Origin: Nanobdellota archaeon
GTDB taxonomy: Archaea > Nanobdellota > Nanobdellia > Woesearchaeales > JAGWAF01
Reading direction: 5' to 3'
NCBI GenBank assembly: GCA_038046365.1
Contig: JBBSWF010000136.1
Span: 3,681-67,680, forward strand
DNA length: 64,000 bases
Part shown: positions 12,783-57,650 of the stretch, one piece after another
Layout: the number at the start of each line of letters is the position of its first letter
Numbering within the stretch: the stretch's first letter is position 1
Position numbers and translations under genes: made by a program
The notes under the pieces: model-generated
What the model was told of the DNA's origin: nothing
Database searches by the model: none
What the model saw: only the letters and a program-made list of their open reading frames with translations

Positions 12783-12785
12783 GAT

Positions 12786-23932: not shown

Positions 23933-23946
23933 TGGTTGATATGAAA

Positions 23947-24609: not shown

Positions 24610-24675
24610 CGTCCTGCCCGGCCAGGACTAGATTAAATACCTTTTTATAATCAGGAGGGGGGAGAGAACCCACAG

Positions 24676-25650: not shown

Positions 25651-25693
25651 GGATCAGGAGTGTTCATCAATGAACAGACAGGTTGTCGCTAAT

Positions 25694-26314: not shown

Positions 26315-26323
26315 ACCGCGGGT

Positions 26324-26743: not shown

Positions 26744-26898
26744 GAGGACAATTCCAGGACATCTGGTTAAAATAGTTTATGAAACGGCCGGATTGAGTTA
26801 GCCATAGGCGATCATTAACCGTTGGGCACTATAACAATGGGATACCGAGCGAGCTATAGACAACTGCGCAGTTATCGATATCTGTCTCGACCACCAAC

Positions 26899-27555: not shown

Positions 27556-27742
27556 AAGGGCATGACCCGGACAACGATGATTTAACAGTTTTGGAAACAG
27601 ACTCCCACTGAGCAGGCGATTTGGTTTGGGCGGGAGCTATGGCCCAACTCCGGGGAGTCTGAGTGGTTGGATTTGGAACGTTTTCATGGTTTTCTTTTTA
27701 TAAAACAGATAATCCGCTTATCGACGATAAAAAAGAGAAATG

Positions 27743-27750
27743 TTTAAATA
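27743..27750 (+). promoter_or_regulatory. TATA-like box upstream of the 27782 gene / giant-gene operon
   Basis: TTTAAATA lies 32-39 nt upstream of the GTG at 27782. A second A/T box, CTTTTTATAAAAC, is at 27694-27706. Confidence 0.3.
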
Positions 27751-27781
27751 CTGAAATTTGAGGTTTGCCCCATTGGGATAG

Positions 27782-40700: not shown

Positions 40701-43700
40701 CCTAACACTCAACCCCGGCGACTCTATAACAGCCGGCAGAGATCCACAAAACACTATAGATATCAGCGATTCACAGGTCTCAAGAAACCATCTCAGGATA
40801 AATTATGACAAAGAGTCAGACCTGATAACCATCACAGACCTGCAATCAAGCAACGGATCGACAATAACCTCAAAAATTGAAACAAAAGCACTAACAACAG
40901 AAGAAAAAACAAAAACATTAGCCCCCGAAGAAAAAAGCGTCATTGGATTATACACCCGAGTCTCTGATGCGATATACTCCCCGGTTGAGCAAATGCCAAA
41001 AATCAGCCAGGATGAAATAATCATTGACTCAACGTTTGGCGACCCGAAGAAAGCGTATGACAAACTCAAGCAAACCGGATTACTGCCAGACATCAAAATA
41101 GTAGCAGAAGGATCCGAATACCTGATATCCCCGCCATTCCTACTAAAAGGAGTCCGGCCTGCGCATATTGTATTTGTAAAAACACCTGGAAACTACAAGT
41201 ATCACATGCAGGTGGCATACAGAAGCAATTCAGCCTCAACATACAGGCTACTGCCCTGGATCGCACGATATCCAATCAAAGGAAAAGAGACCGACTGGTA
41301 TGTTAAAGGGATCATGATCCCGCAAGGAAGCGACAGACCGACATCAGCAGACGAAAACATGCTCAATTATCCATTTGTGATCACCCATGAGATGAACAAG
41401 AGACTGTTGCGCGAGAAATCTATTCAAGCAGAGCCGCCGCTTCCGGTAATAACCAGCTTGAGTCCATACGGAGGAACATTTTTGCCGCAGGGAATAGAAA
41501 CACTGAAAGGCTTAAGCAAAGAAGTGAGAACCGAGACATTTGACATAAAGAACGATCCTCCAATCGACATCGGAACACAATCCCAACCGGAGATAGATTT
41601 CGTCATAAGAGACGCGGAAATCGCGTTTGGACGAAACGCAATGCAGTTATTTATCAGATCAAAATCCGGCCAGAAAATATACCGATTCGTACAAGCAGAA
41701 TATCTTGTCCAAGACGCCGCAACAGGAAAGAAGAGATTTATAACAAAGACCTCGCTTGCGGGAATAGAAGAAATCGGAAACGGCGTAAATGATTATGGGC
41801 TAAGGCACAAACAAATAGCACAATCCAACCCCATACTCAACATCGGAGGAATCGAGTACGACTCTCAATTACAAGAATTCCTCTACGAACACCCTGTGCG
41901 CGGCGCAAGACAGGAGCGCGTGCTTGAACAACTGCCAGATGGAACCACAAAGCCAACGCCATATACAGCAGTGCCAAACGAACTTGAGCCGCTGATACAG
42001 CAAGCCGATCAATTCTTCAAAAAGTATGGCCGAAGGAAAGAACCCGAAGGTCCGCTCTCATCAATATCCATCTCTCAAGAAGAATCGCCAGCCGAATCGC
42101 GGCCAACAGCCGAGCTATACGAACAAATCTCAACAGCAGTTCAACAGCCAACAAAGGAACCAAAAGACGACGCAATCGAAGCGCTTGACAAGGCCGCCAG
42201 AGACGCCCTGAAGCAAGGCGATGAAGCGGCACAGAACGCGATCCGGACTCTAACCCGGATAAACACAAGAATGTCCGCAAACACCATCATCAAGCTACTT
42301 GAAGACAAAATATCAGACGCGACCATCATCAAAATACTTACAGAAGAGACAAGCGGCCTTAAGCCTTATGCGCTCAGCGAAGAGATGGAACGCGTAAAAA
42401 ACCTCGGCGTACTACCCAAGCTAACAAGCGAGTCAGCAGATACGCAGAAAGAAGCAGTCAGATTCCTTGGCGTAAACGGCAATGGATTGGACCTACCACG
42501 ACTAACTGAACTTAAAACCACAACACAAGACCCAGAACTATCCAGAATCATCAAGGAGTCCATCGACTCAATTCGCGGTAGAATGGTTGAGCTATCACTG
42601 CAGTCCTTGCCTGCAGGGATCAGAACCAGAATATCCATGAAAGACGACTCAACAACAGACATGATAATTGGAAAATACGACCTTACAAAAAATCAAATCA
42701 TAGGACAAGTTGGAGGAGAGAGAAAAATCCTGAACTCAAATGAAATAAAAAAAATCCAGATAGAAGGAGAAGATTATATGATACTCGGTGAAAGACGTAC
42801 ATTCAAAACAAAAAACAAATACGTGACGCTCCCAATCCACCCAGATATAGACATAGTCCCAGAACTCAAGGAATTTGGCAAAGTGCGTGCGCCAAGCGCC
42901 AAACCGACCGAACCTGAGAGAGCGCCAGCACGATTAATCGAAGGAGTAATATCAGCTGCATCGAATATTCCAGTCATCGGAATCGCGGCAGGGATATTCG
43001 GACTGCCTGGACTCGCAGAGGCAGGACAAGCCATGTCGACGGCAGCACAAGCCGCGGCGAGCGCGATACAAGTAGTGCCGGACTCGCCGGGGATGATGAT
43101 GGCGACACTTGCTGGCGGACTGCTCTTCGCGGCAGGAAGGAGGATATACAATCGGTACTTCGCAGCGCCAGTCGTGGAACTTCCGACAGGACCGCCGATC
43201 ACAATAACAATCCATGGGATAGATGGGCGAGAACGATCAGTCACATTCGAACAGTTCACGGCAAAAAATCCCATCGACATCAATCCGATCATAGACGCGC
43301 TATCTTCTGAAGACACGTGGCCAGAAGCAGCCAGACTGATAACAGATGCATTCCAGGAAGAAGGACACGAAACAGGGATCATCCGAGGAGCAAACGGGGA
43401 GATAATAGTGCACCTCAAAGAGACCCTCCCGGCAATAGAAACCGCGAACGCCTTAGAAAAACAGACCGGAATCAAAACAAACTGCGGAACAGGATCGACG
43501 AATTGCGCGGGGCATGAGACTAAAGATGAGATTGAGCTTTTGATTGGGAAGATGGGGAGTGGGGATCCAGAAGAGGTAAAAATTGTATCAGATCAGCTTA
43601 CACGTCTTGGAGCAGTAGCGGTTCCTTCCCTTATCCTCGGTGCAAAAAATCCCAACATCCTAATCCGAGAATCTTCTTTAGTCGTCCTTGGAAACATAGG

Positions 43701-46700: not shown

Positions 46701-49700
46701 AGAACCGGCGCTGATCCGAGGACTTAGTGCGTTAAAACCCGCCGCAGTAATAGAAAGCGCAGCCATACTTGGAGAGATGAGGTCAAAAGCCGCTGTGCCA
46801 CGCCTTGGACAAATAGCATCAGACCCGAAAAGATGGGCAAACACCAACGCGATCGAAGCGCTCGCAAAGATCGACACGCCAGAGGCGCAAGAACAGATAA
46901 TAAACGCAATGAACAACGCACAAGGACCAAAGTACAAAGCGAGAAGAATGTTTGATGCCACCCAGCTATCAAAGACCACTCCAAACCCGCAGACACACGA
47001 AAGAGCGCTAAACACACTGATCAAAGAATACGATGCAGATGCGAAGACGGATACAATGATCCAAACCGCTAAAATCATTAGAAACTACGTCAAAGAAGCT
47101 GAAAAACATGGACTCAAGAGTCCAAGCGCGATAAAATACCTGAAAGATAGACTACTGACAGAATCAGCCCAATCGTTCTATTGGGTCGACATCCACATTT
47201 CAGACCAAATCGCACTGATCATCACGCTTGGAGAAATCGGACCACAAGCAGAACCAGCGACTGAAAAGATACTGAGCTGGATAGAAGGGGCAATAGCAAG
47301 CGGAGGAGTATACTACCAAGATTTAGATAGTGCATACGAAGCCATCGGCGCAATAAAACCACAATCGAAACAAGACATAGACCGAATAAGAGATATGATC
47401 TTGAAAAACCAAAACGTATATGGAGATCGTAAGAGCACCGATCTGATTAAAGGCCTGATACCTGCACTTGGAAAAATTGGAAAAGCCGCAACACCAACAT
47501 TATTAAAATTACTAAGACCCCAGACACTGCCTGAGCATTCTGAGCTTGTAAAAAGATCTCTCGTAAGCATTGGCGCGGATGCCGTAGCCCAAATAATACC
47601 GGAGATAGCCACCGTTGAATCGGAGATAGCTAACCTGAAAAGACAGATTGGTAGATATCCTACAGACATATATCTGTCTGTACGCGCCTCTGACTTGCAG
47701 ACGGCAAAAATTTCTCTGATAGATGTGTTAGGACTCATGAAAAATCAGGCAAAGGGAGCAATAGACCTGCTAAAGACACAACTCGAACAGTCAAAGAAAT
47801 CTGGAAATGTCGATCTTAACAAACATATAATCCAAGCAATCGGCGAGATCGCACCAGAAGAAGCCATCGACTCGCTGATAGACACAATAAAAACCCAAGA
47901 GAAGCTGAAACAGCTAGCAATAGAACAAATTGGCAAGATCGGACAAAATGAACAGACCCCAAAAACCAGGGAAGCCGCAACAAAGGCCACACAACCACTC
48001 ATAGACGTCATCAAACAGTCACTTGATCGCTCCACAGAAGAAGGTCCTCCACCAGGCCGGGAATACACGATACCTGCAATAGAATCACTAGGGAAGATAT
48101 CCACTCAATCCGAGAAAAAACAACAGATAATCGAGTTCCTCACCAAAGCGCTCGACGAATCCAACAAAGCGCATAATACCGCGCTCGCGAAGGAAAACTA
48201 CGCGATACTTGAGATCCAAGCCACGGTAATCTCGGCGCTCTCGGAAGGAGGGAAGGACGCGAAAGCGGCGATACCAACCATAATCGACGCGATAGAGACC
48301 GCTTCAAGCAGATTTGAGACCGAGCCCCACTCGGGCAGCCTGGTGATAAATGCGGCCGCGTCAGCGATACCAAAGATAGGATCCGACTCCAGGACTGCCG
48401 CGGCCATCGAACGGGAGCTAGCCAAGAATGAGGACTGGAAGATACCCGCCAGCGAGATAGGCAGGGCACGATTAGAGATGGCGAGGCAGGCTAACTCGGA
48501 AGCCCTACGCAAGGCGCTAAGCGACCTGGCGCAGAAAGGCGACATAAACGCAGCTATGGCGATCCATGATGAGACCGCGCTCATGAACGCAGGAGACGAG
48601 GCGGTGAAAGCGCTGCTTGAGCGTGTGTACCAGATCAACAAAGACACCCGGGAACCACTGAAAGCGCAATGGGAGGTAGAGATGATCGCCAAGATAGGAA
48701 CAGAGCAGGCGGTCGCCTCACTCAAAGAACTCATTCGAGGAGACGACGGACTGGCAAACCTAGCTTTCTATTCAGCAAGAGTGCACGCGATACGAGATAT
48801 AGAACCAGCGGCACTAGCTTCGGTTTCAAGGAACCTAGGCGCAAAGGAAGACACCCCGCAAGCACAAGCAAGGAGCGGGGCGATAGTATACCTGGTTTTG
48901 ATGGGAAGCGAAGAAGCGGCAAAAGAACTGACTGACATGATGCTGCGCGAGGAAGGCGAATCGAGAGTCAAGACGCAGCTCAAGAATGCTGCAGACACTA
49001 TCAGAGAAGACGCCAGAAGGGAGAGTGACATCCGATCACAAGAGGAGCTTTCGAAAAAGAAGGCGCTGGCGCTCGCTGACCGTTTCTCAAAGAAAGATGG
49101 CATCACAGGATGCGCTGGCGGAGAATGCATAGAGACCGATGGAATAGCCGCGCAGATTCGGCAGATGACCGAAGCAGGGCACATATCAGAGCTTATGGAC
49201 TACCTCGAGAGCCTATCTGAGGAGATGGGCAACTTTGAAAGATCAGTCGGAATAAAACAAGAGATCAGACCGGAGATCGATGACACCCTCACAGACTTGG
49301 AAACTACCCGCGTCATGGTAGAGACTCACACGAAACAGCTGCAAAAAGAGTTCTCGCTGAGTGACGGACAACAAAAGAAGATGATGCTTATGTACCTGGC
49401 AAGTCCTGAGGATCTGAGGTCGCAACTAATATCATTTTGGCACGATATACTAAATCCGATGAATATAGTAACCGGTTACACATATATGCTAAGAGAGGAC
49501 AAAGAAACACAAAAATTACTTGAACGAGAGCTTACCATCCAAACTAACAAACTGAACGAGCTTGTAGAGATGGTCCGGTCAGGAAAGGAATGGGATTTCA
49601 GCAAACAAAGTCGACCTGGATTACTACTACTATATGCTCACCAAATTCAGGCGCTTAATGAGATATTAACAAGGAACTATTTAGCAATTCAACCATACCG

Positions 49701-51894
49701 AAAAGAATTGAGTGGAAAACAACAGAACACGCTAGATTCTATCTTAGATGGAAACCTAAAAACCAAAAATGCCATAGTCTACTTAACAGAGTTCGAGCCC
49801 AAAGAAATAAAAGAGCAAATCAGCGAATCGGCCAGAGAGTTCGGCCTCGACACCTTCGAGATCGGCGAAAACGTCAAAGATACAGAGACACAGGCCTCAA
49901 TAACCAAATCCCTGCAAAACTTCGCAGCCAACTCAAAGAGGGCAATGGACACATACAACCAGAACGCCAGACTAAAAGGCGAACCAACACGCACACTTAA
50001 AAACAGCGTAAAGGCAGATTACGACCCCTCAACTAAAGAAATAGAAGTCACCTACCAGGACAACGCAGGAGGAATCGACATCGAGACAGTCAGGAAAAAC
50101 CTTGAAAAAAAATGGAAAACGATATCAGAAGTCAGACAAAAATTAAGGGATATTGGAATATTTGCTGCGGACTCCCCGCAAGACCAATTGACAGATTATG
50201 AAGTCATCCACAGCATACTGCTAAAAGGCGTCACCACAAAAGTAGAAGAAGAAGGCGAGCATGGAATAGGACTCTTTGGAGTAGTCGAAGAAATGAAACA
50301 TAGCGGAGGCTGGACAACAAAAATAGACTGGAAAACCAAGGAAACCGCTGCAAAATACAAGCCGCCAGTAAGCATAGAGCAGGTCAAAGACCCGGACGGA
50401 AACGTAATCGGAACAAAATTCACACTGAGAATGAAATCGACAGATACACCGCGATTCCTGCTCGAATACCCACGAACGATGATAGCCAAGATGAGAGCGA
50501 TAGAACCTGAATCAATAGTCCAGGAAGCGTTAGTCGAGAGCGCGATGCAGACTGAAGCGGGCAATCCCATGACGCCGATGGAGGTCGCGACAGCAAAACT
50601 ACAGGCGAGGCTTGAATCACTTGGGCTGCAAGGCAAGAAGCTGGAGGACGCCTTGTCGAAGAAGCTGGAAGAAGTGCAGAGGGTAATGCCGGAGCAAGCA
50701 GAGCCTGAGAGCGCGCGATTCAAGCCGATAGAGAAGACCGAATTGATCAAAACAAATCTGGACAAGTATCTAACCAAGGCGACAGGCAGGACATTAGAGA
50801 CATTACAAGAGCTGATCCAGACCGATGAACAAGGGAACGTGTTCTTCATCGACGCTGATGGAAAACCGCATATAGAGATAACACAGTACGTGGGAGACCT
50901 AATATCTAACCTGCTCGACAGGATCGCCTTGAAGATGTTGATAGGCGAAAAAGACGAAGCGAAAGCTTATGCCCTGAAACTCGCAGACATCGTCGACGCT
51001 ATGATAAGCCAGGTCGAGACCGGATCGGCGATAGGCATACTAAAAGATCATGTAGAGGCAGCGCAGAAGACAGAAACATACAACCTGATGAAAGAAGCAT
51101 GGTATGCTAACAAAGACAAGCTTCTGGCAGAGCAGACCGAAGACACATTAAAACCCATACAGGACGCCTTACTCAAGTACAAGAAAGAGGTGTCAAACAC
51201 CTACACATACTCCGAAAGCTACCCTGCAGCGGCCGACGCGCTGGCGAAAAGACTCGCTGAAATGCAGACGATCCCACCGGCACAGGCAGAGACATCGGTC
51301 GCGATAGCGCCTACTGTCAGTGAAAAGGTCCCGAAGACCAATAGCAGGGGATACATACCGATGCGCGACGTGATCGCGAAAGGAGGGGCAGAGCAGCACA
51401 AGATGACCCTGCAGGTCAGCGGGAACCGCCTGCTAGTCGACGGAAAACCAGTCCAGGGGATAACCATCAAAGGGGACATGGCCACGATAACAGGCGAGCA
51501 GTACACAAGCTGGGAGTCGGCGATGGCATTCGCCAGAAATGAAGCGATACCGCCAGGGGTGGATGGATTCACCTACGTCGCAGAACCAGGAAGGATGGCT
51601 GGGAATACTCAGGATGAGATAAAGAAGACCCTCGGAGCAGCGAGCACAGAGGCGGTGATAAAAATCAGGTTCATCGCCCCCATTGAGAAGATATGGGTGA
51701 AATCAGAGAAGGCTAAGCCGTTCAAACTAGCGGTGGAAGAGGGAATAGACACTTACCTCATATCCGATATGGACGTAGTGGACTTGAGAGAAAAACCTCA
51801 GGATCAAGAAGCAATAGCACGATTAGGAGCGGCCACTTCAGGGTTTATGATAGATTATGACTTCGAGGTCGGAATACCTGAAGAAGTCCTGTAA
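28783..51894 (+). CDS. Giant 7,703-aa multi-pass, multi-domain protein of unknown function
   Basis: Single uninterrupted ORF of 23,112 nt. It has an N-terminal signal/anchor, four or more hydrophobic clusters, long coiled-coil-like tracts, and the recognisable modules listed as sub-features below. Confidence 0.85.
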   Translation: MKRRHLDQLIALLMIILIVDTPLVQGAATASTPAAGAGALAKTPEQVKQELTDKKEVKVENNIDSVNKALKETGEIHKDSKIDVPPEGNVERTSTGVRITAGTAEVNLDKGAKATVKMQQTLTGKLVAGAVGLVKDYNLAQTSAGQKVAAIADLVGFSGSFEEGMTAAVGLLGGQTHTTEVESETRSGKKTKRKISGGKTTVTRKGDVKVKTDKGEQETDITDFEEGTVIGGNTAIDKKNNAIASFQGQNVELSTAPDGSLRISGKGGKVSAYISVEDKYGEKGSSGTLRGTATTTDDTGWITIGHKNGETVISGQKATFVSTPNEKDIANYKPWSVSADDFSVKIDNHNQLSEARFKNGYLEPNPGRKITDSVPPLNNDYVQYFAKGTRELALNQQYSKVIIDESMWKGAVKDEFFRNGQGGEKDIIEGKQNGFFVTAKTIKPDPNEPGSKVSRRYFIENIDPKSKAGFLGFVTSEVYIPGKDGKSMMADGKPTSIKWGALMVKGKDGTLKPHVALMDESINTAALFKKNPSSIAPNVGVEFGPWKVDADKSGIMAASETKRGRQYGLFLANDALTAKTTEWRAEYTRREDAAIAAKQAALKALEGGGFTSAQIKEAQQIFAKLGVKKTAEDLKVMYYLDKKDAKSAADIATSRDNRRMVADAFSQSTDPSQQKTAMSMWGDLAKTAATEREGEELRRNILNLDGRLTGKTTFGQVDTLADEIAQGRANSKEYYKNDLEGSIRLMDANQRLADAVNFQGVDTEKRREADYISEIRSGGDAKAKTYELAVASDRIGLEQDAKDNYDLVRSHPDYYGGTNSDIVKNANARSKVIGDHLEQVVARQQAQLPAEELKKLGKSELEKIAKTLSGGSHSNEMRILGELYERRGQHDLAKQTYELGLVSSDLGAGSAAEKSLGQGRQTAMINTAVEQLPRLIQSNDFKGARALIEGISNDQKQKMEEYINNAENTKNTQDLIKNGNFAEAEATAKKITDAKTRETLLFRTYALSNDLTKLTESTSSFKDAGARDAAYDYLATTYEQRGLRASAEGLIDKIAGISPEEKALRKAMMYAGTDVSKKEHFLKQAEAILTREGAQNKEEYNMNMARYSALIGRNKDVVDSWYAAAIGDLQKAKQGATPEIIARLTEQEKSFTKEVQTLRAMDTNTRISEYTKKFSELGSQRETLRNQEGYLWNSEEIRNKVNTVNQKTAEAQKEYAAYFSTLSSAYIGLERWRIENGQYPDTPQIKQMKLDALKAAEESQRIMNKWASIPEITYRPEEIALNELTARGRELTTGIFLSNEIDGINKVQNDLTKALLEKQYGDRYAQYKLAENGGDIQKTLAAVRDDKTKFDQQLKNPYMDDIGRNNIRTFQTIVGNSLGTLEVATKPDLKVDSQTFSYLSAMRGNEINTVSRFKELNQIPLTDIERPMVDQQIYQLKASQDALSAKMYERLDTYTPTVRASIDKMTATTSVAAGVVKNNEITSFDKGLWGTGIRRFTDNLLQGSIGQAFESLADVSLASTYWSLGSDYDSTYSTYNKAFTDTIQSSKAARQLNEIAQMYPGVDIYDSKNLGKLTPEQQWIVQESIFKTKPQSIEEAYGGKSDSTYYTSGEAWKGATNLGNLGKVAASMAVAAVTTGGLGWLAGAIGLTKNVGTTTTAAANFLTNAFAFTVADEAINQIATGRYDASKFADTEFGTKLATNLVTFGAMHALGSATKPLSSYISGEGKAAIEAASKATTQPGGKAATAVIEAATKPISLPRSILAKSTEIGLTSAGMGAVFGTAEYVQRRLNGEILTAEDILTGYGSAALNGLIFTSLHQAATTAVTTAGTKVSSYLTEKALSSSAENVIKTATQFATKIGLDLRDPNKVADTLARAKLQQEGISAPTQEQVALAKSSIPKETINRATNPTASPVERAEPLRQIGRYLARTIAESQITEAEVLQKAKTLDNRGVGLEKMPETERAGLIERARQGLVEERIRNDLSRAKGNDALESQVRKGLTDAIEQEAAKPGEAILPWSDITDYQMAEAQYRKLTGQAELSSIDQKMFTLRGALPEEAFKKIIESSDYQGWIARQKTIEMDILSARQTLGELRTTAEALKGPEATSTKKPPLQDSTAYKDARVALEPTRLGTERMVLTNELSEARTSATDAQRELERLGSLADKPIENEAAFKEQAQSRGMTSEEARQEATRQATQRLEEANTKKTQLEAQLKENGDNILTANLEKAILQSPDSAVPVAAEARATSILAEITRVNQEKQRLSQTETSAKERARQLGEYERALNEALLKAHEQLNRAKAAVDSESPGVLDLLGRGGAYLTSRENLLKTKNELETAQARKIFSEDLIKRVEDAKKSRQIPNVEEIARKLAQESTDSRYARFANDAAEGIAKKAMTAEQTIESARSAAAERLDEAETRYKLAVKQFAEGQKQLLFDDNALAAQARMADAQMNAESTKAMLEKAKTAMSMAETNSIIQAMDLAMLIGDPQIKGILENINGISMLETGRSEAETVKAKDLRREEINRIVNEKMTGIEAAPGSAEHQAKLETEIKAAEAATAGKLTEYSQQAKQKVQEALQMMKAEAAQSTQKIRTADAKKTLEDIVKAEASKGNHAQIADTVRRETGLSNQDLVKLMGSERGKAPVIEERILEDREYSAQEKDSLERRVNEIEMKRKYSPLTIEETLELYRADKQARLLRLIDAKQQEVSDLVSSQGRQEGETATILEARISKARNELADLRTKKEASIKTSNEKLNLLQTLELRGWEYMTNKMGAGGRLANFDPFQVEAESIAYAQHLMGASTAMAGGKSSFVGPGILETSRSTLGMKGVFLTTQGLAFAQNQIMAEKFAMLGRKVYFLDGLDKLADRLTKTQEADFVVVGDQTIGFLLTKLWDPNTPVNERLAAKGIIGELTTNRHIFADEADSVWKPKNRYISGGKQTSPPVEKLAIASSVNTIFERMGLYVLDKNGNEAYRAKIVDGSEQTSIKTIASATSLPESEIIRFLENRNSIIREGFSDRSLSEAGSKLNAEQARKIYDAFTALKEKTKFKQEFYDELATRVATETGLTTGQVKEIFRNPNKANWNDAKVAKAIEYLEAINEFGDFMGKYKGHDYFYLESEQRIIPGKSGAPQKDQRYSNAYTALAAEYVGAKAYGQKANTEAVKVSGKAVEASLPQFYTMAERGGSFVTSMTGDPGAAEATMSLTLGMKWSASDVITKKLFGTDTKAGDWLERGLLRVTGVGANRADALDWIVSNAKTLERSGGVENKNKVYAIVSLLKGLENREISEKLTKDPRFEHITTVIESGTAELGTWTIRTKSGEVWSEKKISEAEFAEYKRRFANGEMKNTLIILGEGASRGTDIPMLRDIPWIAIGETESIKSEAQQMITRAGRVPGEEPTIHLIVSGGAKITAAELRRSMESAESYANRANAVEGAISALDGIGNDFFNQYSVRNMMGADSTAFRVNEALRDTFKGTAGKNLEITPGLESIKDSIKKKIDSAVQFWKEIQELRENPDKINDPKYAKIKNALKETLSDEISKGGDTPQVYRDALKRYFDSLSAGEEARAKALAVNPGELKTRTGDVTAGKPLFGATDYVEWADTFSKTFSEKDLPAVRSGKTAEAAIVMPAAEARLRQKKIALDEIIPLAERAEQSADAQRAAREEITRIMPEREAPAVQIAPTITSTWSSSYLSPALTRAAGYASAIGLYGVGTTLSNAASAASAATTETSATLLTALSHASTDPATLGVAILTAATAIAWTPLRNAATAFLKPTAETIAEGLESPNEALRQAAQNKLTKMGNVGARAAAKKLASKNSQTREQAYELLMQFGQTANGAEQQIMDAVTDPTETIDNKQRGIQALQSMKTTQSINTLKRIVDGTNKEAAYMAKLALEVMGIDETPVKADFPVEANKEQTAARPENQIAAGESVTIRGSTRTIERAKERLEKENIEIKIGQRTISIIKDENDGQIKILSEGKSLTLNPGDSITAGRDPQNTIDISDSQVSRNHLRINYDKESDLITITDLQSSNGSTITSKIETKALTTEEKTKTLAPEEKSVIGLYTRVSDAIYSPVEQMPKISQDEIIIDSTFGDPKKAYDKLKQTGLLPDIKIVAEGSEYLISPPFLLKGVRPAHIVFVKTPGNYKYHMQVAYRSNSASTYRLLPWIARYPIKGKETDWYVKGIMIPQGSDRPTSADENMLNYPFVITHEMNKRLLREKSIQAEPPLPVITSLSPYGGTFLPQGIETLKGLSKEVRTETFDIKNDPPIDIGTQSQPEIDFVIRDAEIAFGRNAMQLFIRSKSGQKIYRFVQAEYLVQDAATGKKRFITKTSLAGIEEIGNGVNDYGLRHKQIAQSNPILNIGGIEYDSQLQEFLYEHPVRGARQERVLEQLPDGTTKPTPYTAVPNELEPLIQQADQFFKKYGRRKEPEGPLSSISISQEESPAESRPTAELYEQISTAVQQPTKEPKDDAIEALDKAARDALKQGDEAAQNAIRTLTRINTRMSANTIIKLLEDKISDATIIKILTEETSGLKPYALSEEMERVKNLGVLPKLTSESADTQKEAVRFLGVNGNGLDLPRLTELKTTTQDPELSRIIKESIDSIRGRMVELSLQSLPAGIRTRISMKDDSTTDMIIGKYDLTKNQIIGQVGGERKILNSNEIKKIQIEGEDYMILGERRTFKTKNKYVTLPIHPDIDIVPELKEFGKVRAPSAKPTEPERAPARLIEGVISAASNIPVIGIAAGIFGLPGLAEAGQAMSTAAQAAASAIQVVPDSPGMMMATLAGGLLFAAGRRIYNRYFAAPVVELPTGPPITITIHGIDGRERSVTFEQFTAKNPIDINPIIDALSSEDTWPEAARLITDAFQEEGHETGIIRGANGEIIVHLKETLPAIETANALEKQTGIKTNCGTGSTNCAGHETKDEIELLIGKMGSGDPEEVKIVSDQLTRLGAVAVPSLILGAKNPNILIRESSLVVLGNIGGNPAISTLLDAINDKDDKVRLTAALALMKIDPSVIEGMGGNFLKVTLTLIDILARTPEENKQKILTRVTSLGEPVVPYFIVALSARNPDYAFEAYHSLIAIGKPAVSPLKSLFLNKNSGIRDTAVLALGEIGAQSEADESQRSGPPYTIRLASEIRVFLEDNLDDFDPGEVRGAVLYTLGQLKLNTWTVIDQMLNGLTRSDPYVRIMAARGLGELGNKHPTILNALIRYMDEGTFMFEGSINDRNAAVKSIGKLGVDILPDIIGKYLKASDEKSRHNLFLVMIAIKNLNPDKKERIFEVIRQSGLPQNFKELWNELSANDYALINEYSELISSQGTSRTGLENAIDTGLPVKRSSRSDGHYKDDDFSKQKDLLSLTTLIVLSELIHYLHTGQGKSDLGQIISRDLLDWGSEAGGLVVYKNGKLSFERYEPRCRGDNCRYIISEKLDADSPHALFSWHNHATKLLGNAEIAGPSGWHSAQDVSGGGDIGTAEQENKDGVVITYLGENKFNVNYYTYDGIVINLGDYSWDTSKVPLLTKEKIGELEKVYSENVVRRSDVIDNELERLLITTKNDCDSGAIPGAACSAMQTALETTNYDDKVNKIIMAQSALATPSIVAPDISKPPTDAEKSLNQKFGTLINKAQRPLDESVLEETLAARDYTTPQTMPEETAAPEVTTQPVTELLTGLPGLVEAGQITSSTMQTAPDSPLAVMATVTAGLAITAGRSIYNYFSPIGDTAGSRTARIGMIAAGALLAAPATAWAGQMLMSSPDMAISIAQTSTNPPALAASMLMGALGTLIGTVFGGYKIPPSPIRHVNKRIGPGDRYWNPTASESNVDTLRAQNDQGELLAAIIKTGEIGELVTAYASVDETGQITALTARKEELPPADIHLSIVWDGQLERYTGVEALTALTSADQSKIVDDIATAAAQANTMMEKKGGASILALVPTIEAKERSIATAIAAGAVETARSVKINFAVEGFSGPQIVRDSSRRYLISQWPSSEPALIRGLSALKPAAVIESAAILGEMRSKAAVPRLGQIASDPKRWANTNAIEALAKIDTPEAQEQIINAMNNAQGPKYKARRMFDATQLSKTTPNPQTHERALNTLIKEYDADAKTDTMIQTAKIIRNYVKEAEKHGLKSPSAIKYLKDRLLTESAQSFYWVDIHISDQIALIITLGEIGPQAEPATEKILSWIEGAIASGGVYYQDLDSAYEAIGAIKPQSKQDIDRIRDMILKNQNVYGDRKSTDLIKGLIPALGKIGKAATPTLLKLLRPQTLPEHSELVKRSLVSIGADAVAQIIPEIATVESEIANLKRQIGRYPTDIYLSVRASDLQTAKISLIDVLGLMKNQAKGAIDLLKTQLEQSKKSGNVDLNKHIIQAIGEIAPEEAIDSLIDTIKTQEKLKQLAIEQIGKIGQNEQTPKTREAATKATQPLIDVIKQSLDRSTEEGPPPGREYTIPAIESLGKISTQSEKKQQIIEFLTKALDESNKAHNTALAKENYAILEIQATVISALSEGGKDAKAAIPTIIDAIETASSRFETEPHSGSLVINAAASAIPKIGSDSRTAAAIERELAKNEDWKIPASEIGRARLEMARQANSEALRKALSDLAQKGDINAAMAIHDETALMNAGDEAVKALLERVYQINKDTREPLKAQWEVEMIAKIGTEQAVASLKELIRGDDGLANLAFYSARVHAIRDIEPAALASVSRNLGAKEDTPQAQARSGAIVYLVLMGSEEAAKELTDMMLREEGESRVKTQLKNAADTIREDARRESDIRSQEELSKKKALALADRFSKKDGITGCAGGECIETDGIAAQIRQMTEAGHISELMDYLESLSEEMGNFERSVGIKQEIRPEIDDTLTDLETTRVMVETHTKQLQKEFSLSDGQQKKMMLMYLASPEDLRSQLISFWHDILNPMNIVTGYTYMLREDKETQKLLERELTIQTNKLNELVEMVRSGKEWDFSKQSRPGLLLLYAHQIQALNEILTRNYLAIQPYRKELSGKQQNTLDSILDGNLKTKNAIVYLTEFEPKEIKEQISESAREFGLDTFEIGENVKDTETQASITKSLQNFAANSKRAMDTYNQNARLKGEPTRTLKNSVKADYDPSTKEIEVTYQDNAGGIDIETVRKNLEKKWKTISEVRQKLRDIGIFAADSPQDQLTDYEVIHSILLKGVTTKVEEEGEHGIGLFGVVEEMKHSGGWTTKIDWKTKETAAKYKPPVSIEQVKDPDGNVIGTKFTLRMKSTDTPRFLLEYPRTMIAKMRAIEPESIVQEALVESAMQTEAGNPMTPMEVATAKLQARLESLGLQGKKLEDALSKKLEEVQRVMPEQAEPESARFKPIEKTELIKTNLDKYLTKATGRTLETLQELIQTDEQGNVFFIDADGKPHIEITQYVGDLISNLLDRIALKMLIGEKDEAKAYALKLADIVDAMISQVETGSAIGILKDHVEAAQKTETYNLMKEAWYANKDKLLAEQTEDTLKPIQDALLKYKKEVSNTYTYSESYPAAADALAKRLAEMQTIPPAQAETSVAIAPTVSEKVPKTNSRGYIPMRDVIAKGGAEQHKMTLQVSGNRLLVDGKPVQGITIKGDMATITGEQYTSWESAMAFARNEAIPPGVDGFTYVAEPGRMAGNTQDEIKKTLGAASTEAVIKIRFIAPIEKIWVKSEKAKPFKLAVEEGIDTYLISDMDVVDLREKPQDQEAIARLGAATSGFMIDYDFEVGIPEEVL
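33649..34250 (+). other. Giant ORF: transmembrane cluster 1 (about 5 hydrophobic helices)
   Basis: KVAASMAVAAVTTGGLGWLAGAIGL, AAANFLTNAFAFTVA, LATNLVTFGAMHALG, IGLTSAGMGAVFGTA and GSAALNGLIFTSL. Confidence 0.5.
37100..39000 (+). other. Giant ORF: SecA-like DEAD motor ATPase (NBD1, insertion, NBD2)
   Basis: AMAGGKSS (Walker A, K2804), IFADEADSVWKPKNRYISGG (DEAD at aa 2916-2919), SMTGDPGAAEATMSL, GEGASRGTDIPM and ESIKSEAQQMITRAGRVPGE. These are collinear with the SecA motifs [26 protein letters not shown], GMTGTAxTEAxEF, NMAGRGTDI and [18 protein letters not shown]. Confidence 0.65.
39830..40055 (+). other. Giant ORF: hydrophobic cluster 2
   Basis: YLSPALTRAAGYASAIGLYGVGTTL ... LGVAILTAATAIAWTPL. 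Confidence 0.4.
40093..40455 (+). other. Giant ORF: HEAT-like repeat block 1
   Basis: SPNEALRQAAQNKLTKMGNVGARAAAKKLASKNSQTREQAYELLMQFG... follows a PBS-lyase/HEAT-like periodicity. Confidence 0.45.
40699..40875 (+). other. Giant ORF: FHA (forkhead-associated, phosphothreonine-binding) domain
   Basis: LTLNPGDSITAGRDPQNTIDISDSQVSRNHLRINYDKESDLITITDLQSSNGSTI carries the G-R ... S-x-x-H ... N-G pattern (G3985, R3986, S4000, H4003). Confidence 0.7.
43000..43161 (+). repeat. Giant ORF: internal repeat copy 1 (hydrophobic hairpin motif)
   Basis: GLPGLAEAGQAMSTAAQAAASAIQVVPDSPGMMMATLAGGLLFAAGRRIYNRYF (aa 4740-4793). Confidence 0.6.
43550..44600 (+). other. Giant ORF: HEAT-like repeat block 2
   Basis: GSGDPEEVKIVSDQLTRLGAVAVPSLILGAKNPNILIRESSLVVLGNIGGNPAISTLLDAINDKDDKVRLTAALALMKIDP, then NSGIRDTAVLALGEIG and SDPYVRIMAARGLGELG. 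Confidence 0.65.
44920..45150 (+). other. Giant ORF: possible JAB/MPN (JAMM) metalloprotease-like site
   Basis: E5384 (WGSEAGGLVVY), H5430-N-H5432 (FSWHNHATK) and S5450-A-Q-D5453 (WHSAQD). The H-to-S spacing is longer than the classic HxHx7Sx2D. Confidence 0.35.
45754..45891 (+). repeat. Giant ORF: internal repeat copy 2 (hydrophobic hairpin motif), followed by further hydrophobic helices to about 46130
   Basis: GLPGLVEAGQITSSTMQTAPDSPLAVMATVTAGLAITAGRSIYNYF (aa 5658-5703). Similarity is also visible at the nucleotide level: GGACT(G/A)CCTGGACT..GA.GCAGGACA. Confidence 0.6.
46690..48900 (+). other. Giant ORF: HEAT/ARM-like repeat block 3 (about 2 kb)
   Basis: Recurrent units include AILGEMRSKAAVPRLGQIASD, AIEALAKIDTPEAQEQII, LIPALGKIGKAATPTLLKLL, IIQAIGEIAPEEAIDSLIDTI, IPAIESLGKIS, VISALSEGGKDAKAAIPTIIDAI and MIAKIGTEQAVASLKELI. 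Confidence 0.55.
49411..50440 (+). other. Giant ORF: histidine-kinase module (HisKA-like H-box plus HATPase_c)
   Basis: The H-box is LISFWHDILNPMNIVTGY (H6887). The N-box-like motif is NFAANSKRAMD, G1 is YQDNAGGIDIE and G2 is EHGIGLFGVVEE. The module ends ...GTKFTLRMKS. Confidence 0.7.
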
Positions 51895-53791: not shown

Positions 53792-53825
53792 CTTAAAAAG
53801 GCGACCCGATTCTGTCGAATATATT

Positions 53826-53899
53826 GCTCCCGTGGTCTAGCTTGGATATGACATAGCCCTGCGGAGGCTATAACCCGAGTTCGAATCTCGGCGGGAGCG
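53826..53899 (+). tRNA. tRNA-Arg-GCG: tRNA-Arg (anticodon GCG), 74 nt, no encoded CCA
   Basis: Hand fold. The acceptor pairs GCTCCCG with CGGGAGC, followed by G. The D arm has A14, G18, G19 and A21. The anticodon stem is TAGCC/GGCTA with loop CTGCGGA. The T arm is CCGAG-TTCGAAT-CTCGG. Confidence 0.9.
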
Positions 53900-53902
53900 T
53901 TG
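53883..53902 (+). repeat. 20-bp direct repeat, copy 1 (the 3' end of tRNA-Arg)
   Basis: GAATCTCGGCGGGAGCGTTG. Confidence 0.85.
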
Positions 53903-53997: not shown

Positions 53998-54017
53998 GAA
54001 TCTCGGCGGGAGCGTTG
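53998..54017 (+). repeat. 20-bp direct repeat, copy 2 (orphan duplicate of the tRNA-Arg 3' end)
   Basis: GAATCTCGGCGGGAGCGTTG, identical to 53883-53902 and 95 nt downstream of it. Confidence 0.85.
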
Positions 54018-54068
54018 TATATCTTCTAAGGGGGTTCACGACGAACCCCGAGGAGAAAAATAGAGGGA

Positions 54069-54803
54069 TTATATCTGTGTTAAATGGCCCTCTAGCTTCT
54101 CTAATCGGAGCGGTCCGTCGATGTCCTTCACCAGCTCATTTAGCAACGCAGGCCAGTTTTTAACCAGATCCCTACACGCCAAGAGTTGTCCTTTCCCGGA
54201 GTTGCGTGCCTGATCATAGATATTGGCCCCGGCAGTTTCTCTTAGAAGAACATCAGGATCCATGTGCCACATCCTTGGAAAAGACGCCCAGTGACAGTAA
54301 ACTAAAACGCTGCTATTCACAGTAAACCTCTCCACATCCTTCTCGTCCATCCCATATCCATGATTGCCGCTTAGAGGATGATTGTTTATCCAACATCCTA
54401 TAAAAGGCACGCCAAGTCTCGCGGCATCGAAGATCAGGTCGTATCCATACGACCTAAGGCTCACATTCCAACCATCAGCGTCTATTTCGCCACTTCCTTG
54501 AGCAAACGATAAGTTTAAGCTTGTAAGAAGGACGTCGTATGGGATAGCATCCGGTCTCGTTTGCGGTCTTGTATCTGTGGCATTTAGAAGCACCTTGGCC
54601 TGATAATAACAATTAACGACTTCAAGATGTGAAGCATAATCATCCAGAGTTTTCGTAAGCGTTTCCCTCCGCTGACGCGTCTTCCCGTAAAATTCCTGGA
54701 GATTTCTCATCGTAGAATAGTATGGGCAATCGCGCCTAGCCCACTCATGTTCATCCACTACAAGTATCCGATACCGCTTTTCGTTCTTATTTTCATTATC
54801 CAT
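54069..54803 (-). CDS. Hypothetical protein
   Basis: 244-aa ORF with complex composition. No motif was recognised. A GGGGTTC-ACGAC-GAACCCC hairpin lies just 3' of it (about 54031-54049). Confidence 0.5.
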   Translation of the reverse strand: MDNENKNEKRYRILVVDEHEWARRDCPYYSTMRNLQEFYGKTRQRRETLTKTLDDYASHLEVVNCYYQAKVLLNATDTRPQTRPDAIPYDVLLTSLNLSFAQGSGEIDADGWNVSLRSYGYDLIFDAARLGVPFIGCWINNHPLSGNHGYGMDEKDVERFTVNSSVLVYCHWASFPRMWHMDPDVLLRETAGANIYDQARNSGKGQLLACRDLVKNWPALLNELVKDIDGPLRLEKLEGHLTQI

Positions 54804-54937
54804 GAGGCCTCACCCTTGCAAATGAATTGCCTGTGCGCTAATCATCATCAAGAGGTAATTACATTTTTGTTATACTTAAAATTTAGGTACAGTTTATAGG
54901 AAATTAGGTAAAAATTAAGATTAATATTACGTTTTAT

Positions 54938-55963
54938 GTGATCTATGATAAGATTTATAAAGATTATTTGATCAGTCACCCTGTGGAAGACATCAAACTC
55001 GATCTCAAAGACTGGAAGATTCTTGGCATACTCTGCACAGATGCCCGAACCCCAAATACTAAAATAGCAAAACGGGTGGGACTATCGGTTGAAGCGGTCG
55101 GATATCGTATCAGAAAGCTCGAAGAAAGTGGAGTCATACGGAAGTACGGAATCTACCCTGATGAATTGAAAATCAACATCAAGACATTCTTTGTATTCCT
55201 CAAATTCACGACTATGAGTGAACATGATGAGAACAGATTCATAGAGATATTCACTAAGCACCAAAATGTCGGGGTTGTTTGGGAATCGAGTGGAAATTGG
55301 GATTTCATCCTCATAATCTATGCGGCAGATATATTCATCTTTGCCAAAATAATCGATGACCTGCTTTCCCGGGTTGCACGCCACCTCAAAGAATACAAAA
55401 GCCTCTTTGCCCTTGAACAGATCAAATTCACACAGCTCATCGGTGAAGAACTCAAAGCTTTCAAGGATCCCTATGCCACGATCACACCGCTTGAGAAGAG
55501 GCTAGACACCCTAATCATCACAGACAAGGAAAAGAAGCTATTGTCATATTTAGACGACCATGGACGAGCAAGCGCAGTAGCGATCTCAAAAACATTGAAT
55601 ATCCCCCCAGAAACCGTTCGTTTTGCCATGAACCGACTACGGGAAAAACAAGTGTTCATCACGACTTACGCTGCACTAGACTACTTCAAATTAGGGTACT
55701 CTAAGTATGTTCTCGTGATCAAACACTTATTACATGACAATAAAAGACTTCAAATGCTCCTAAAAGCACTTGCTGATGACATCCACGTCCGCCATGTTAG
55801 CCGGATGGGAGGGGCAAATGAAGTCATAGTGACTATATTTGTCAAAACCAATGAAGAACTTAATCGATACCTCCGAAACTACCAAAATCTATTCCCTGAG
55901 ATCATATTAGGCATCGAGATCAACCAAGTCTTCAAACGACTCAAAGAAAAGCTGCTGATTTGA
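54938..55963 (+). CDS. Tandem-duplicated Lrp/AsnC-type regulator (two HTH plus ligand-domain units)
   Basis: GTG start. The units read LDLKDWKILGILCTDARTPNTKIAKRVGLSVEAVGYRIRKLEESGVI and ITDKEKKLLSYLDDHGRASAVAISKTLNIPPETVRFAMNRLREKQVF, each followed by a RAM-like segment. Confidence 0.65.
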   Translation: MIYDKIYKDYLISHPVEDIKLDLKDWKILGILCTDARTPNTKIAKRVGLSVEAVGYRIRKLEESGVIRKYGIYPDELKINIKTFFVFLKFTTMSEHDENRFIEIFTKHQNVGVVWESSGNWDFILIIYAADIFIFAKIIDDLLSRVARHLKEYKSLFALEQIKFTQLIGEELKAFKDPYATITPLEKRLDTLIITDKEKKLLSYLDDHGRASAVAISKTLNIPPETVRFAMNRLREKQVFITTYAALDYFKLGYSKYVLVIKHLLHDNKRLQMLLKALADDIHVRHVSRMGGANEVIVTIFVKTNEELNRYLRNYQNLFPEIILGIEINQVFKRLKEKLLI

Positions 55964-55972
55964 TGGAGAAGA

Positions 55973-56287
55973 TCATGCGATGACCTTCTCCACATTCGCC
56001 TCGACCACCTGCTTCGACACTAACATATCGATCTCGATGAGCTTCTTGACCAGCGGATTAGCGACGTTCAGTTTATAGAGCTCAGCTCTGCCGATCTTTC
56101 TGGTATTCACAACAAGGCCGACTTTCACGAAATCAGGCCAAAACTCATGCAGGGTACTCCATGCGATACCAGCACCATTTGCGATATCTGTCAGACTGTA
56201 GTCAAATTCCTGGTTGTCAATGAAAAAATCAAGGACCTTTACCACTGGCGAATCCCCAAATACTAGCCTGAAGGATGTCTGTTCCAT
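55973..56287 (-). CDS. Small winged-helix DNA-binding protein
   Basis: 104 aa. VLDFFIDNQEFDYSLTDIANGAGIAWSTLHEFWPDFVKVGLVVNTRKIGRAELYKLN is a wHTH pattern common in small archaeal regulators. Confidence 0.5.
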   Translation of the reverse strand: MEQTSFRLVFGDSPVVKVLDFFIDNQEFDYSLTDIANGAGIAWSTLHEFWPDFVKVGLVVNTRKIGRAELYKLNVANPLVKKLIEIDMLVSKQVVEANVEKVIA

Positions 56288-56383
56288 AACATATTAATTG
56301 GTTAGTTTGTATTTAAACTTTTCGATGTTTTAAATTGAAGTCTTCGAACAAAGGTTGAAATAGGAATATGGCTGCAGGTTGGC

Positions 56384-56659
56384 ATGGATTACAAGCCACT
56401 GGTCCTGCGTAAACTATTCCGTCGAAGGATCATCGGCGGGAAACACACCGCCTTCGAACACGTAATGACTGGAGTCCCGGGCCATGCGACCGGCGAAGTC
56501 AAGAAAGCTGCGGAGGAACTCATCAAAGACGGATTCATCATCGCAAAGAAGACCCCCTACGGACTTCAGATCAGCCTCGATCCAGAACGATTGGAAGAGA
56601 TCGAACAGATGATTGCTAACCAGTCAACCGAAGAGGGGGCATCTGAAACACTTGTTTAA
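56384..56659 (+). CDS. Small hypothetical protein (possible wHTH)
   Basis: 91-aa ORF in the AT-rich island, containing EVKKAAEELIKDGFIIAKKTPYGLQISL. Confidence 0.35.
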   Translation: MDYKPLVLRKLFRRRIIGGKHTAFEHVMTGVPGHATGEVKKAAEELIKDGFIIAKKTPYGLQISLDPERLEEIEQMIANQSTEEGASETLV

Positions 56660-57017
56660 CAACTCAACAGAAACATCCAAGTGGGCACAGTTAGCACTCC
56701 ATCCTGTAGGCTGAGCTGATCCTTGCAGGTGATTATGTTTGTATGATTTTCCATCTTTTGAAGGGGCGCCAGAATACAAATCTATGAAAGGATCCTCATT
56801 ATCCCAAGTAGTTAAGCTCACCTTAATTGGGAAGCTACCTTTTCTTATGTGGTACTCTTTCAGTGTTTTGTACGCCATCTAAGTCACCTGAACACTTACG
56901 AAGCCGGTGTCATTTATATACATTTCGATGTCATTTATATATATTTAAGGCTACATTTGATATTAGGCACTATCATAAATGACAACCTTTATATATATTT
57001 GAAGCTACATTTAACCT

Positions 57018-57650
57018 ATGTTTCAGATAGATATGGTACGTAAACTTGAAGGTGTACAGACGATAGACTCTGTAATGTCCATTCTTGGTATCAACAAATC
57101 AAAAGCCATTCAAACTATCTATCAACTTCGTAAGAGCGGATATGTCAAAACACACAAAAGAAGCGATCAAACCCGGATCTACAACATTTCTCTAAAGAAT
57201 AAACTCAAGGGGGTAAGTTACTATGAGATCATCAATCCTAACTCCCCGATAAAGATCTCACCCCCAAATGAGTATAAGATATATGGCAGGACACCTAGCA
57301 TTGAAGAAACGATTGTCTTTGCAATTAAGACCAAAAGCCTACGAACAATCCTTGCATCTTTAATCTTATTCAGAAAAGTGACCGATTGGTCCGAGCTATA
57401 TCACCTAAGTAAGACAAATCGAATCGAAAGACAAGTCGGTGCGCTGTATGACCTGACAAGACTGATACTAAAAAGAAGCAAACGAATGCCAAAACGATTC
57501 ATGAAAAATGCTCAACCCAAAGAAAACTACCCCTTTGAATACACAATCCCAGGATTACAATCCAAAGATTTCCAAAAGATTGAAAACAAGTGGAAGATAT
57601 ACCTACCATTCAACAAAACAGATTTAGAGGAATACCATGATTTCAATTGA
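57018..57650 (+). CDS. AbiEi-like protein (N-terminal wHTH), putative antitoxin/regulator
   Basis: 210 aa. The wHTH reads SVMSILGINKSKAIQTIYQLRKSGYVKTHKRSDQTRIYNIS. It overlaps the downstream nucleotidyltransferase gene by 14 nt. Confidence 0.45.
   Translation: MFQIDMVRKLEGVQTIDSVMSILGINKSKAIQTIYQLRKSGYVKTHKRSDQTRIYNISLKNKLKGVSYYEIINPNSPIKISPPNEYKIYGRTPSIEETIVFAIKTKSLRTILASLILFRKVTDWSELYHLSKTNRIERQVGALYDLTRLILKRSKRMPKRFMKNAQPKENYPFEYTIPGLQSKDFQKIENKWKIYLPFNKTDLEEYHDFN

Follow-up and report, generated by a model that had tools for sequence, protein, structure and literature searches.

Introduction

Class-I sensor histidine kinases such as HK853, WalK and VicK carry a DHp domain followed by a CA domain, and about 215 residues lie between the histidine and the end of the domain. 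Giant multi-pass proteins of the Omnitrophota ('Archaeovorin' type) are another described system of relevance here: divergent SecA_DEAD, HEAT_2 and HATPase_c belong to the domains that occur most often in them, and few archaeal giant proteins were found in the same study (bioRxiv 10.1101/2023.11.21.568195). The present work deals with a stretch of 64,000 nucleotides from the genome of a Nanobdellota archaeon (GenBank assembly GCA_038046365.1, contig JBBSWF010000136.1, here C136, positions 3681-67680), which is referred to below as the window. A giant open reading frame (ORF) at window 28783-51894 on the + strand runs uninterrupted for 7703 amino acids (aa), as is seen from the ORF list and the translation. 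Towards its C-terminus the encoded protein contains a module which very probably is a true, remote class-I histidine-kinase transmitter core.

By function and descent, the closest systems to this module appear to be the class-I HisKA/HATPase_c transmitters, with some CitA/DpiB-like traits. The module shares with the HK853/WalK/VicK kinases the DHp-then-CA order, the X-region helix and, as aligned, both N-box asparagines. Its H-box fits the consensus H-(E/D)-h-x-(T/N)-P-h-x-x-h-x-G-Y; the G1 aspartate and second glycine, an F-box-like K-x-(Y/W) and the terminal G-T-x-F strand are kept, and the candidate G2 box has the form G-x-x-G-h-G-L with a spacing of 19 residues to the GG turn. The differences from these kinases are also considerable. 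The distance from the histidine to the end of the domain is ~332 residues in the module, the first G1 glycine is replaced by alanine and the basic residue at H+3 by leucine, and the module stays below every curated profile threshold. Furthermore, it begins ~6,870 residues into a protein of 7,703 aa and is followed by a 480-aa tail, with no adjacent receiver and no detectable homologue.

The kinases CitA, DcuS and DpiB combine a DHp of the SPOB_a type with HATPase_c, and the H-box pattern of this group is H-E-F-x-N, which the H-D-I-L-N of the module resembles. The likeness extends to a DpiB match on the G2 box and a SPOB_a match on the H-box. However, the module scores 20 bits against a DpiB equivalog cut-off of 656, so that it is not a member of this family, and the periplasmic PAS/Cache sensor architecture is lacking. 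The class-II kinase CheA is comparable in that its CA domain is also enlarged and has a long lid; CheA P3P4 and P4 are the best Foldseek matches (E 8e-6 to 1e-3) of a structural model that was driven by a kinase alignment. In contrast to the module, whose histidine is in a HisKA-like helix, CheA has its acceptor histidine on a separate P1 (HPt) domain, and neither a P5 nor a CheW-like domain is present in the module.

For the giant protein as a whole, the Omnitrophota giant proteins appear, by comparison of architectures, to be the nearest precedent. Like them, the archaeal protein is very long and combines several hydrophobic segments with HEAT_2 arrays and a remote ATPase module of the kinase type; its domains have diverged beyond the reach of standard models, and its host is ultra-small and probably host-dependent. 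Unlike them, it comes from an archaeal (Woesearchaeales) and not from a bacterial host, it is 7,703 aa long as opposed to more than 10,000-30,000, no giant protein of similar sequence turned up in the collections searched, and it has a complete H-box ahead of the ATPase domain.

Organization of the kinase-like module

The residues aa ~6866-7220 of the giant protein are rather likely to form a very diverged class-I (HisKA-type) transmitter, which consists of a DHp hairpin with His6887, a helical insert of ~90 residues and an enlarged Bergerat-fold CA domain. A first-pass annotation of the window had listed an H-box, an N-box-like motif, a G1 box and a G2 box in this region, and direct reading of the translation recovers all four of them at the same places and in canonical order. 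His6887 lies 816 aa from the C-terminus, in agreement with the earlier figure of about 800 aa. The motifs that follow it are located 159-283 aa downstream of the histidine and not 130-250 aa as had been counted.

All features described in the following are encoded on the + strand. The module is preceded by a helical linker (aa 6795-6865, window 49165-49377), which connects the last HEAT-like repeats with the DHp. The linker matches no Pfam family and is helical, with low confidence, in both AlphaFold models of the region. The DHp-like helical hairpin occupies aa 6866-6940 (49378-49602) and is represented in the model built with a kinase alignment by the helices 16-46 and 48-74. Its first helix bears the H-box LRSQLISFWHDILNPMNIVTGYTYML (aa 6878-6903, 49414-49491), which was found by direct reading and ranks 1st of 7685 positions with a position matrix. 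The H-box includes His6887 (codon 49441-49443), the putative phospho-acceptor. It reads F-W-H6887-D6888-I-L-N6891-P6892 and matches H-(E/D)-x-x-(T/N)-P, the pattern of class-I transmitters. The second helix (aa 6908-6931) resembles the X-region of kinases, and its site ranks 3rd of ~7,670 positions with the matrix of the X block. Between the DHp and the CA domain lies an extra helical segment (aa 6941-7029, 49603-49869), which falls into gaps of the hhalign and MAFFT alignments, is modelled with a per-residue confidence (pLDDT) <50, and includes ~45 residues without a counterpart in HK853-type kinases.

The CA domain, which is HATPase_c-like and would adopt the Bergerat fold, spans aa 7030-7220 (49870-50442). 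It is supported by HATPase_c as the top Pfam match, by DpiB on its G2 part and by hhalign from end to end. The N-box-like motif NFAANSKRAMD (aa 7046-7056, 49918-49950) is placed by hhalign and by the invariant columns of the kinase alignment A1. N7046 and N7050 align with both invariant kinase asparagines (A1 columns N187 and N191), N7050 being at the Mg-ligand position. R7053 is found at the lysine position of the N-x-x-x-N-A-x-K pattern, and the N-box block as such is a weak match (17th of 7689). The G1 box YQDNAGGIDIE (aa 7091-7101, 50053-50085) ranks 1st of 7690. In its core, D7093-N-A7095-G-G7097, the adenine-binding aspartate and the second glycine are kept, both corresponding to invariant A1 columns (D234 and G238), and the first glycine of D-x-G-x-G is changed to alanine. 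The F-box-like NLEKKWKT (50098-50121), a weak feature, is aligned by hhalign and MAFFT with the kinase motif (L/I)F(D/E)KFYQ. The candidate G2 box GEHGIGLFGVVEE (aa 7158-7170, 50254-50292), which is followed by the helix ...MKHSGG, ranks 1st of 7685 and is also recovered by DpiB and hhalign. Its G-to-GG spacing of 19 residues is identical to that of GGTGLGLAISKQIIELHGG in the genome's own kinase.

The last strand of the CA domain, GTKFTLRMK (aa 7210-7218, 50410-50436), is absent from the motif list of the first-pass annotation. It corresponds to the kinase motif G(T/S)TF(T)hxhP, ranks 1st of 7695 and is modelled with a pLDDT of 71-86; its glycine aligns with the invariant A1 column G351. The residues H6887, P6892, N7046, N7050, D7093, G7097 and G7210 all fall into invariant columns of A1. 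Downstream of the module, the protein ends with a C-terminal tail of ~480 residues (aa 7221-7703, 50443-51891), for which no Pfam family, no homologue and no receiver or HPt domain was detected.

According to the hhalign alignment, the module contains ~115 extra residues in comparison with HK853-type kinases. These are distributed over four places: ~45 separate DHp helix 2 from the N-box helix, and the others are in the CA domain, where ~15 follow the N-box helix, ~36 belong to the ATP lid and ~23 precede the last strand. All four insertions are at loop positions that are variable among kinases, and it is because of them that profile models fail on the module. Two candidate G2 segments are arranged in tandem at window 50146-50292, RDIGIF...VIHSILLKGVTTKVEEE and GIGLFG..VVEEMKHSGGWTTKIDWK. 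An internal duplication of the lid-helix-strand element (aa 7123-7157 vs 7158-7187) was considered and dropped, since the similarity is not significant (p 0.06).

Probable homology to histidine kinases

The homology of the module to histidine kinases is supported by profile searches, alignment and motif statistics. HisKA is the best Pfam family for the DHp piece, and HATPase_c is the best for the adjacent downstream piece, which is the canonical order. A six-frame HisKA search of the genome returned only the three canonical kinases and the site in the giant protein (21.7 bits, E 4e-4). Taken jointly, this genome-wide E-value and the independent rank of HATPase_c as the best downstream match indicate a resemblance beyond chance. 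SPOB_a is the second Pfam match on the H-box piece (E 0.009), and the sole NCBIfam match is the kinase DpiB over the G2 region (E 1.4e-4).

As a reference set, 31 Woesearchaeales kinases were used, the profile of which matches the PDB entries 2c2a, 3dge and 4jas at E ~1e-73. The comparison of the module with these kinases by hhalign gives one end-to-end alignment of 247 columns (P 0.009), in which the H, X, N, G1, F-like, G2 and end boxes are in register. When ungapped position matrices were made for the cores of the motifs, the sites of H, G1, G2 and the end box each came out 1st of ~7,690 positions, and the N-box came out 17th. The ordered-chain score of the giant protein, 52.6, is higher than in 300 shuffles (mean 33.5, standard deviation 3.0, maximum 46.9) and is the 4th in the genome, after the three true kinases.

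A number of observations weigh against this interpretation. In the searches with the Pfam hidden Markov models (HMMs) PF00512 for HisKA and PF02518 for HATPase_c, no match reaches its gathering threshold. HisKA scores 20.2-21.9 bits (21.9 on the isolated piece, E 1.9e-4) against a cut-off of 26.9. HATPase_c scores 16.7 bits (E 0.01, profile positions 10-108 of 111) against 26.4 on the isolated 197-aa piece, and it is unreported on longer pieces and in the genome-wide search at E <= 0.1. A narrow kinase HMM, searched against all ORFs of the genome, misses the giant protein and gives the region only 6.3 bits. The first block-matrix test, made with wide blocks, ranked only G1 first; since the blocks were narrowed to the motif cores after this attempt, the rank test carries a forking-path bias. 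In the chain test, an unrelated substrate-binding protein scored 47.5. The alanine in place of the first G1 glycine belongs to the same side, and so does the ambiguous placement of G2: hhalign and DpiB pick GEHGIGL (aa 7158-7164), and MAFFT picks the degenerate RDIGIF (aa 7122-7128, window 50146-50169), which is at the canonical distance from the F-box-like NLEKKWKT. The AlphaFold model made from the single sequence is uninformative (pLDDT 39.6), and the model built with a kinase alignment, its circularity notwithstanding, has a pLDDT <50 over the lid and G2. No homologues were found that could show conservation of the catalytic residues. Finally, a cognate receiver is neither adjacent nor fused to the module. 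A search of PDB sequences with the module returned nothing at E <= 10.

Several of these observations would be expected if the resemblance were accidental and the module were a helical, Lys/Glu-rich region with kinase-like motifs, non-homologous to histidine kinases. Every profile match is under its curated cut-off, the hhalign probability for the module against the kinases is as low as 4.4%, the narrow kinase HMM is at noise level genome-wide, the unrelated protein comes near in the chain test, and no homologues are available for building a profile. An accident of this kind would nevertheless have to bring two independent Pfam models to the top for adjacent pieces in canonical order and a third independent model, DpiB, to G2. 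It would also have to produce the genome-wide HisKA match without any other false positive, five to six boxes in register within one end-to-end alignment, and a chain score above all shuffles. The joint probability is ~1e-5 or lower, and we regard a chance resemblance as improbable. The first-pass annotation had spoken of a complete histidine-kinase core. By the curated cut-offs, none of which is reached, this description fails; in substance it is probably right. Likewise, the two-component transmitter that had been recognized there is most likely a genuine remote DHp + CA homologue, at scores below the curated thresholds.

The second AlphaFold model, built with an alignment to 15 kinases, reaches a pLDDT of 56, with 70-90 from the N-box helix to G1 and 71-86 in the last hairpin. 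Its best matches in the PDB (Foldseek) all come from the kinase superfamily and are CheA P4, ZraS, ThkA, HK853 and the kinase-fold Ser kinases BCKDK and PDK, with TM-scores of 0.2-0.44. Since the alignment imposes the kinase family on the model, both the model and its matches show compatibility only and are not counted as evidence. The presence of PDK and BCKDK structures among the matches (E 2e-3 to 1e-2) raises the question of a kinase-fold Ser/Thr protein kinase of the PDK/BCKDK, SpoIIAB or RsbW type, which would phosphorylate a threonine that is then bound by the FHA domain of the giant protein. A bona fide FHA domain is indeed part of the same protein, and no Ser/Thr kinase turned up in a partial Pfam scan confined to the window ORFs. 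However, the best-preserved motif of the module is the H-box, the hallmark of histidine autophosphorylation, and the Foldseek matches stem from the alignment-driven model, with CheA and class-I kinases placed above PDK and BCKDK. We consider a Ser/Thr kinase highly improbable.

Possible catalytic competence and candidate signalling partners

For the activity of the module, we see the evidence as evenly divided: it may or may not still bind ATP and phosphorylate His6887. A descendant of a histidine kinase that has lost phosphotransfer and has been turned over to dimerisation, scaffolding or the sensing of nucleotides within the giant protein would account for the extreme divergence with its ~115 inserted residues. 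It would also account for the D-N-A-G-G sequence of G1, the weak N-box match at rank 17, and the long, poorly modelled ATP lid with its ambiguous G2 position. The lack of a receiver in the giant protein and on the contig points in the same direction, as all three receivers of the genome are beside canonical kinases; orphan kinases, however, are common too. Against such a pseudokinase or relic speaks the nature of the residues that are retained in an otherwise unrecognisable sequence. These are the residues that the chemistry needs most, namely His6887, the aspartate at +1, asparagine and proline at +4/+5, the Mg-binding asparagine, the adenine-binding aspartate and the glycines of G-x-G-L. This is the pattern that purifying selection on activity would leave. 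We rate the pseudokinase as unlikely, while giving it serious consideration.

The absence of receivers from the window, noted in the first-pass annotation, is borne out by a genome-wide Response_reg search, which found none on the contig. The whole genome, which is 86% complete, has three receiver domains. Two of them are small single-domain proteins, of 133 aa on contig C66 and ~127 aa on C71, which adjoin canonical kinases, and the third is part of a hybrid kinase on C61. Iterating the search from this set of three revealed no further receivers in the genome, and a scan of 300-residue windows of the giant protein for receivers gave none. With no receiver in the giant protein or on its contig, the module is to be seen as an orphan transmitter.

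We propose the following mode of action for an active transmitter, in which the fold, catalytic competence, topology, input and output are what we infer. The final hydrophobic segment of the giant protein is at aa ~5757-5775 (hydropathy scan), so that the HEAT arrays, the kinase module and the tail would be on one side of the membrane. The module would thus sit in the long C-terminal part free of transmembrane segments (aa ~5776-7703), presumably in the cytoplasm with its supply of ATP. With N7050, D7093 and the G2 lid as its Mg-ATP contacts, the CA domain would phosphorylate His6887 of the DHp hairpin, and an additional phosphatase activity would be compatible with the H-D-x-x-N-P motif. The module would probably take its input from the conformation of the upstream HEAT arrays and the helical linker, both of which would be coupled mechanically to those parts of the giant protein that lie in the membrane and at the surface. 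As its output, the phosphoryl group would pass to a receiver from another part of the genome. Because the giant protein and its contig have none, the single-domain receivers on C66 and C71 are proposed as candidates.

The giant protein, its relatives and its host

The giant protein has a hydrophobic anchor at its N-terminus, and weakly hydrophobic segments are found in it up to ~aa 5775; it also contains an FHA domain, arrays of HEAT repeats and the kinase-like module. The HEAT_2 arrays are recognized by Pfam with E 2.2e-37. The FHA (phosphothreonine-binding) domain at aa ~3983-4029 (window 40729-40869, + strand) has a Pfam match of 41.4 bits (E 2e-10), above the cut-off of 20.7, and is called on the independent ERZ1286166 assembly as well. 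It is thus a securely identified, bona fide domain by sequence and would be a second signalling module of the giant protein. With the secure FHA domain and the strong HEAT_2 arrays in the same protein, signalling-type modules are not isolated there. A role of the giant protein as a signalling device is plausible. SecA_DEAD was not detected in the giant protein by Pfam at E <= 1 or by phmmer against the PDB. For window 36883-39282, the sole Pfam match is spurious (15 bits) and no PDB sequence matches at E <= 1; any SecA relationship of this part would have to be restricted to the level of the fold.

Relatives of the module were sought in large sequence collections. The search with aa 6790-7260 against 1.84 billion representative proteins found only three fragments of the same gene, with 99% identity, from an ERZ1286166 contig. 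The possibility that these belong to a pseudogene elsewhere was rejected: the end of each fragment coincides with the loss of 1 nt from a homopolymer or simple repeat, which is the error pattern of long reads. No homologue of the module was found in 60 genomes of the same family or order or in a scan of a genome-contig collection. Word-indexed homologue searches revealed no protein of 4,237-13,480 aa that matches aa 6790-7260 or aa 2704-7703, and the homologue search with the tail (aa 7226-7703) was empty. Among 121 genomes of the order, the canonical HATPase_c matches are all in ORFs of <=1,752 aa, and a kinase module within a giant protein is accordingly unusual for the lineage. A tblastn search of the whole giant protein against its own genome found no paralogue, the giant ORFs on C38, C112, C154 and C20 being unrelated. 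These contigs carry four further very long open frames of the 2-Mb genome; two of them, with at least 8405 and 7265 aa, respectively, exit the contig ends, and the other two are 4782 and 4603 aa long.

The contiguity of the giant gene is supported by an independent assembly of long-read style. The contig_5956 of ENA ERZ1286166 (98,380 bp) is colinear with window 39483-60195 at 98.5% identity, with 77 mismatches and 176 small gaps. This argues for a contiguous giant gene, with the kinase-like stretch as part of it, and against a chimeric assembly. In the ERZ1286166 contig, 1-nt deletions in homopolymer and simple-repeat tracts break the gene up into >10 called genes; we read the small gaps as long-read errors and not as pseudogenisation. 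The same contig illustrates how giant ORFs are lost from protein databases that are built on noisy long-read assemblies. An antisense ORF of 217 aa (window 50196-50849, - strand) overlaps the kinase-like module. Since the giant ORF encloses it completely and genes on the + strand are the only ones called there in the independent assembly, it is most likely a shadow frame.

The genome has a size of 2.02 Mb in 184 contigs. The genes neighbouring the giant ORF are archaeal and include those for an ATP-dependent DNA ligase (N, M and C domains) and a Hel308-type helicase with 'Archaeal helicase domain 4'; genes for FtsZ, SerRS and dCTP deaminase are also nearby. The topoisomerase VI-B gene on contig C17 shows 66-77% identity to Candidatus Woesearchaeota genomes. 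From the archaeal neighbour genes and the topoisomerase VI-B identity, the host is assigned to the DPANN archaea of the Woesearchaeales type. A mis-binned Omnitrophota contig was considered as the source of the giant ORF and rejected on account of the archaeal genes that adjoin it. Many public genomes with a topoisomerase VI-B of ~70% identity are titled 'uncultured Methanosarcinales archaeon' ('binchicken' co-assemblies) and one 'Candidatus Aminicenantes bacterium'; these titles are probably placeholder or wrong taxonomic labels.

Base composition of the giant gene

The first-pass annotation had proposed from hand counts of G+C that the kinase module was acquired as a cassette. The counts themselves were reproduced exactly, with 22, 20 and 17 G+C per 60-nt line as compared with 35, and the AT-rich dip survives an analysis with sliding windows and third-position G+C content (GC3) and coincides with the module. 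In comparison with 893 genome windows of 300 codons (GC3 mean 0.591, standard deviation 0.074), the module, with a G+C content of 0.421 and a GC3 of 0.443, belongs to the lowest 3.6-4.4%. GC3 is 0.54-0.58 before the module (aa 6701-6801), 0.35-0.48 inside it, except for one window of 0.57, and 0.60-0.65 after it.

The giant gene contains other dips as well. Codons 1-3525 are uniformly genome-like (GC3 0.49-0.67, mostly >=0.53), and in the last 4,100 codons, blocks of low GC3 (0.34-0.55) at aa ~3600-5600, ~5850-6375 and ~6826-7200 alternate with genome-like blocks. The two blocks outside the module are as AT-rich as the module block, and the low blocks together contain most of the modules recognized by Pfam (FHA, HEAT, kinase-like). 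This compositional patchwork fits a modular accretion from AT-richer sources without proving it. No flanking repeats marking an inserted cassette were found, only short pairs at chance level. A recent transfer from a sampled lineage is ruled against, as the module is far too diverged from any known kinase. The cassette proposal of the first-pass annotation thus keeps the local composition in its favour, but has neither donor, homologue nor flanking repeats behind it. With two other blocks dipping equally and no donor found, it stays a hypothesis, and we lean somewhat against it. Outside the giant gene, a further AT-rich stretch (window 54000-58000, G+C 0.39-0.44) is located directly downstream of a tRNA-Arg gene (53825-53900).

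Conclusion

On a broader interpretation, the giant protein would be an archaeal counterpart of the Omnitrophota giant SecA/HEAT/kinase-ATPase proteins; it would have arisen independently in a DPANN episymbiont as AT-rich modules of foreign origin (FHA, HEAT arrays, kinase) were inserted one after another into a native scaffold. The kinase module would then act as a built-in contact or strain sensor for a host-contact or secretion machine, whose state it would signal either to orphan single-domain receivers or to the FHA domain of the giant protein itself. We offer this combined scenario as a speculation with a small chance of being correct. Seen by itself, the module is very probably a strongly diverged transmitter core in a host protein of unusual kind; being one sequence with no detected relatives, it does not yet permit generalisation.

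Should the module be active, a host-dependent nano-archaeon would possess a membrane protein of 7,703 residues with its own two-component transmitter, and a probable cell-surface or secretion apparatus would be tied directly to phospho-signalling. If true, this extends to the Archaea the combination of HEAT_2 and HATPase_c that has so far been described for giant proteins of predatory Omnitrophota. The module is also a worked example of a kinase core missed by standard annotation. Since loop insertions of the kind seen here break the profile match, the kinases of DPANN and Candidate Phyla Radiation (CPR) genomes may be undercounted in current inventories.

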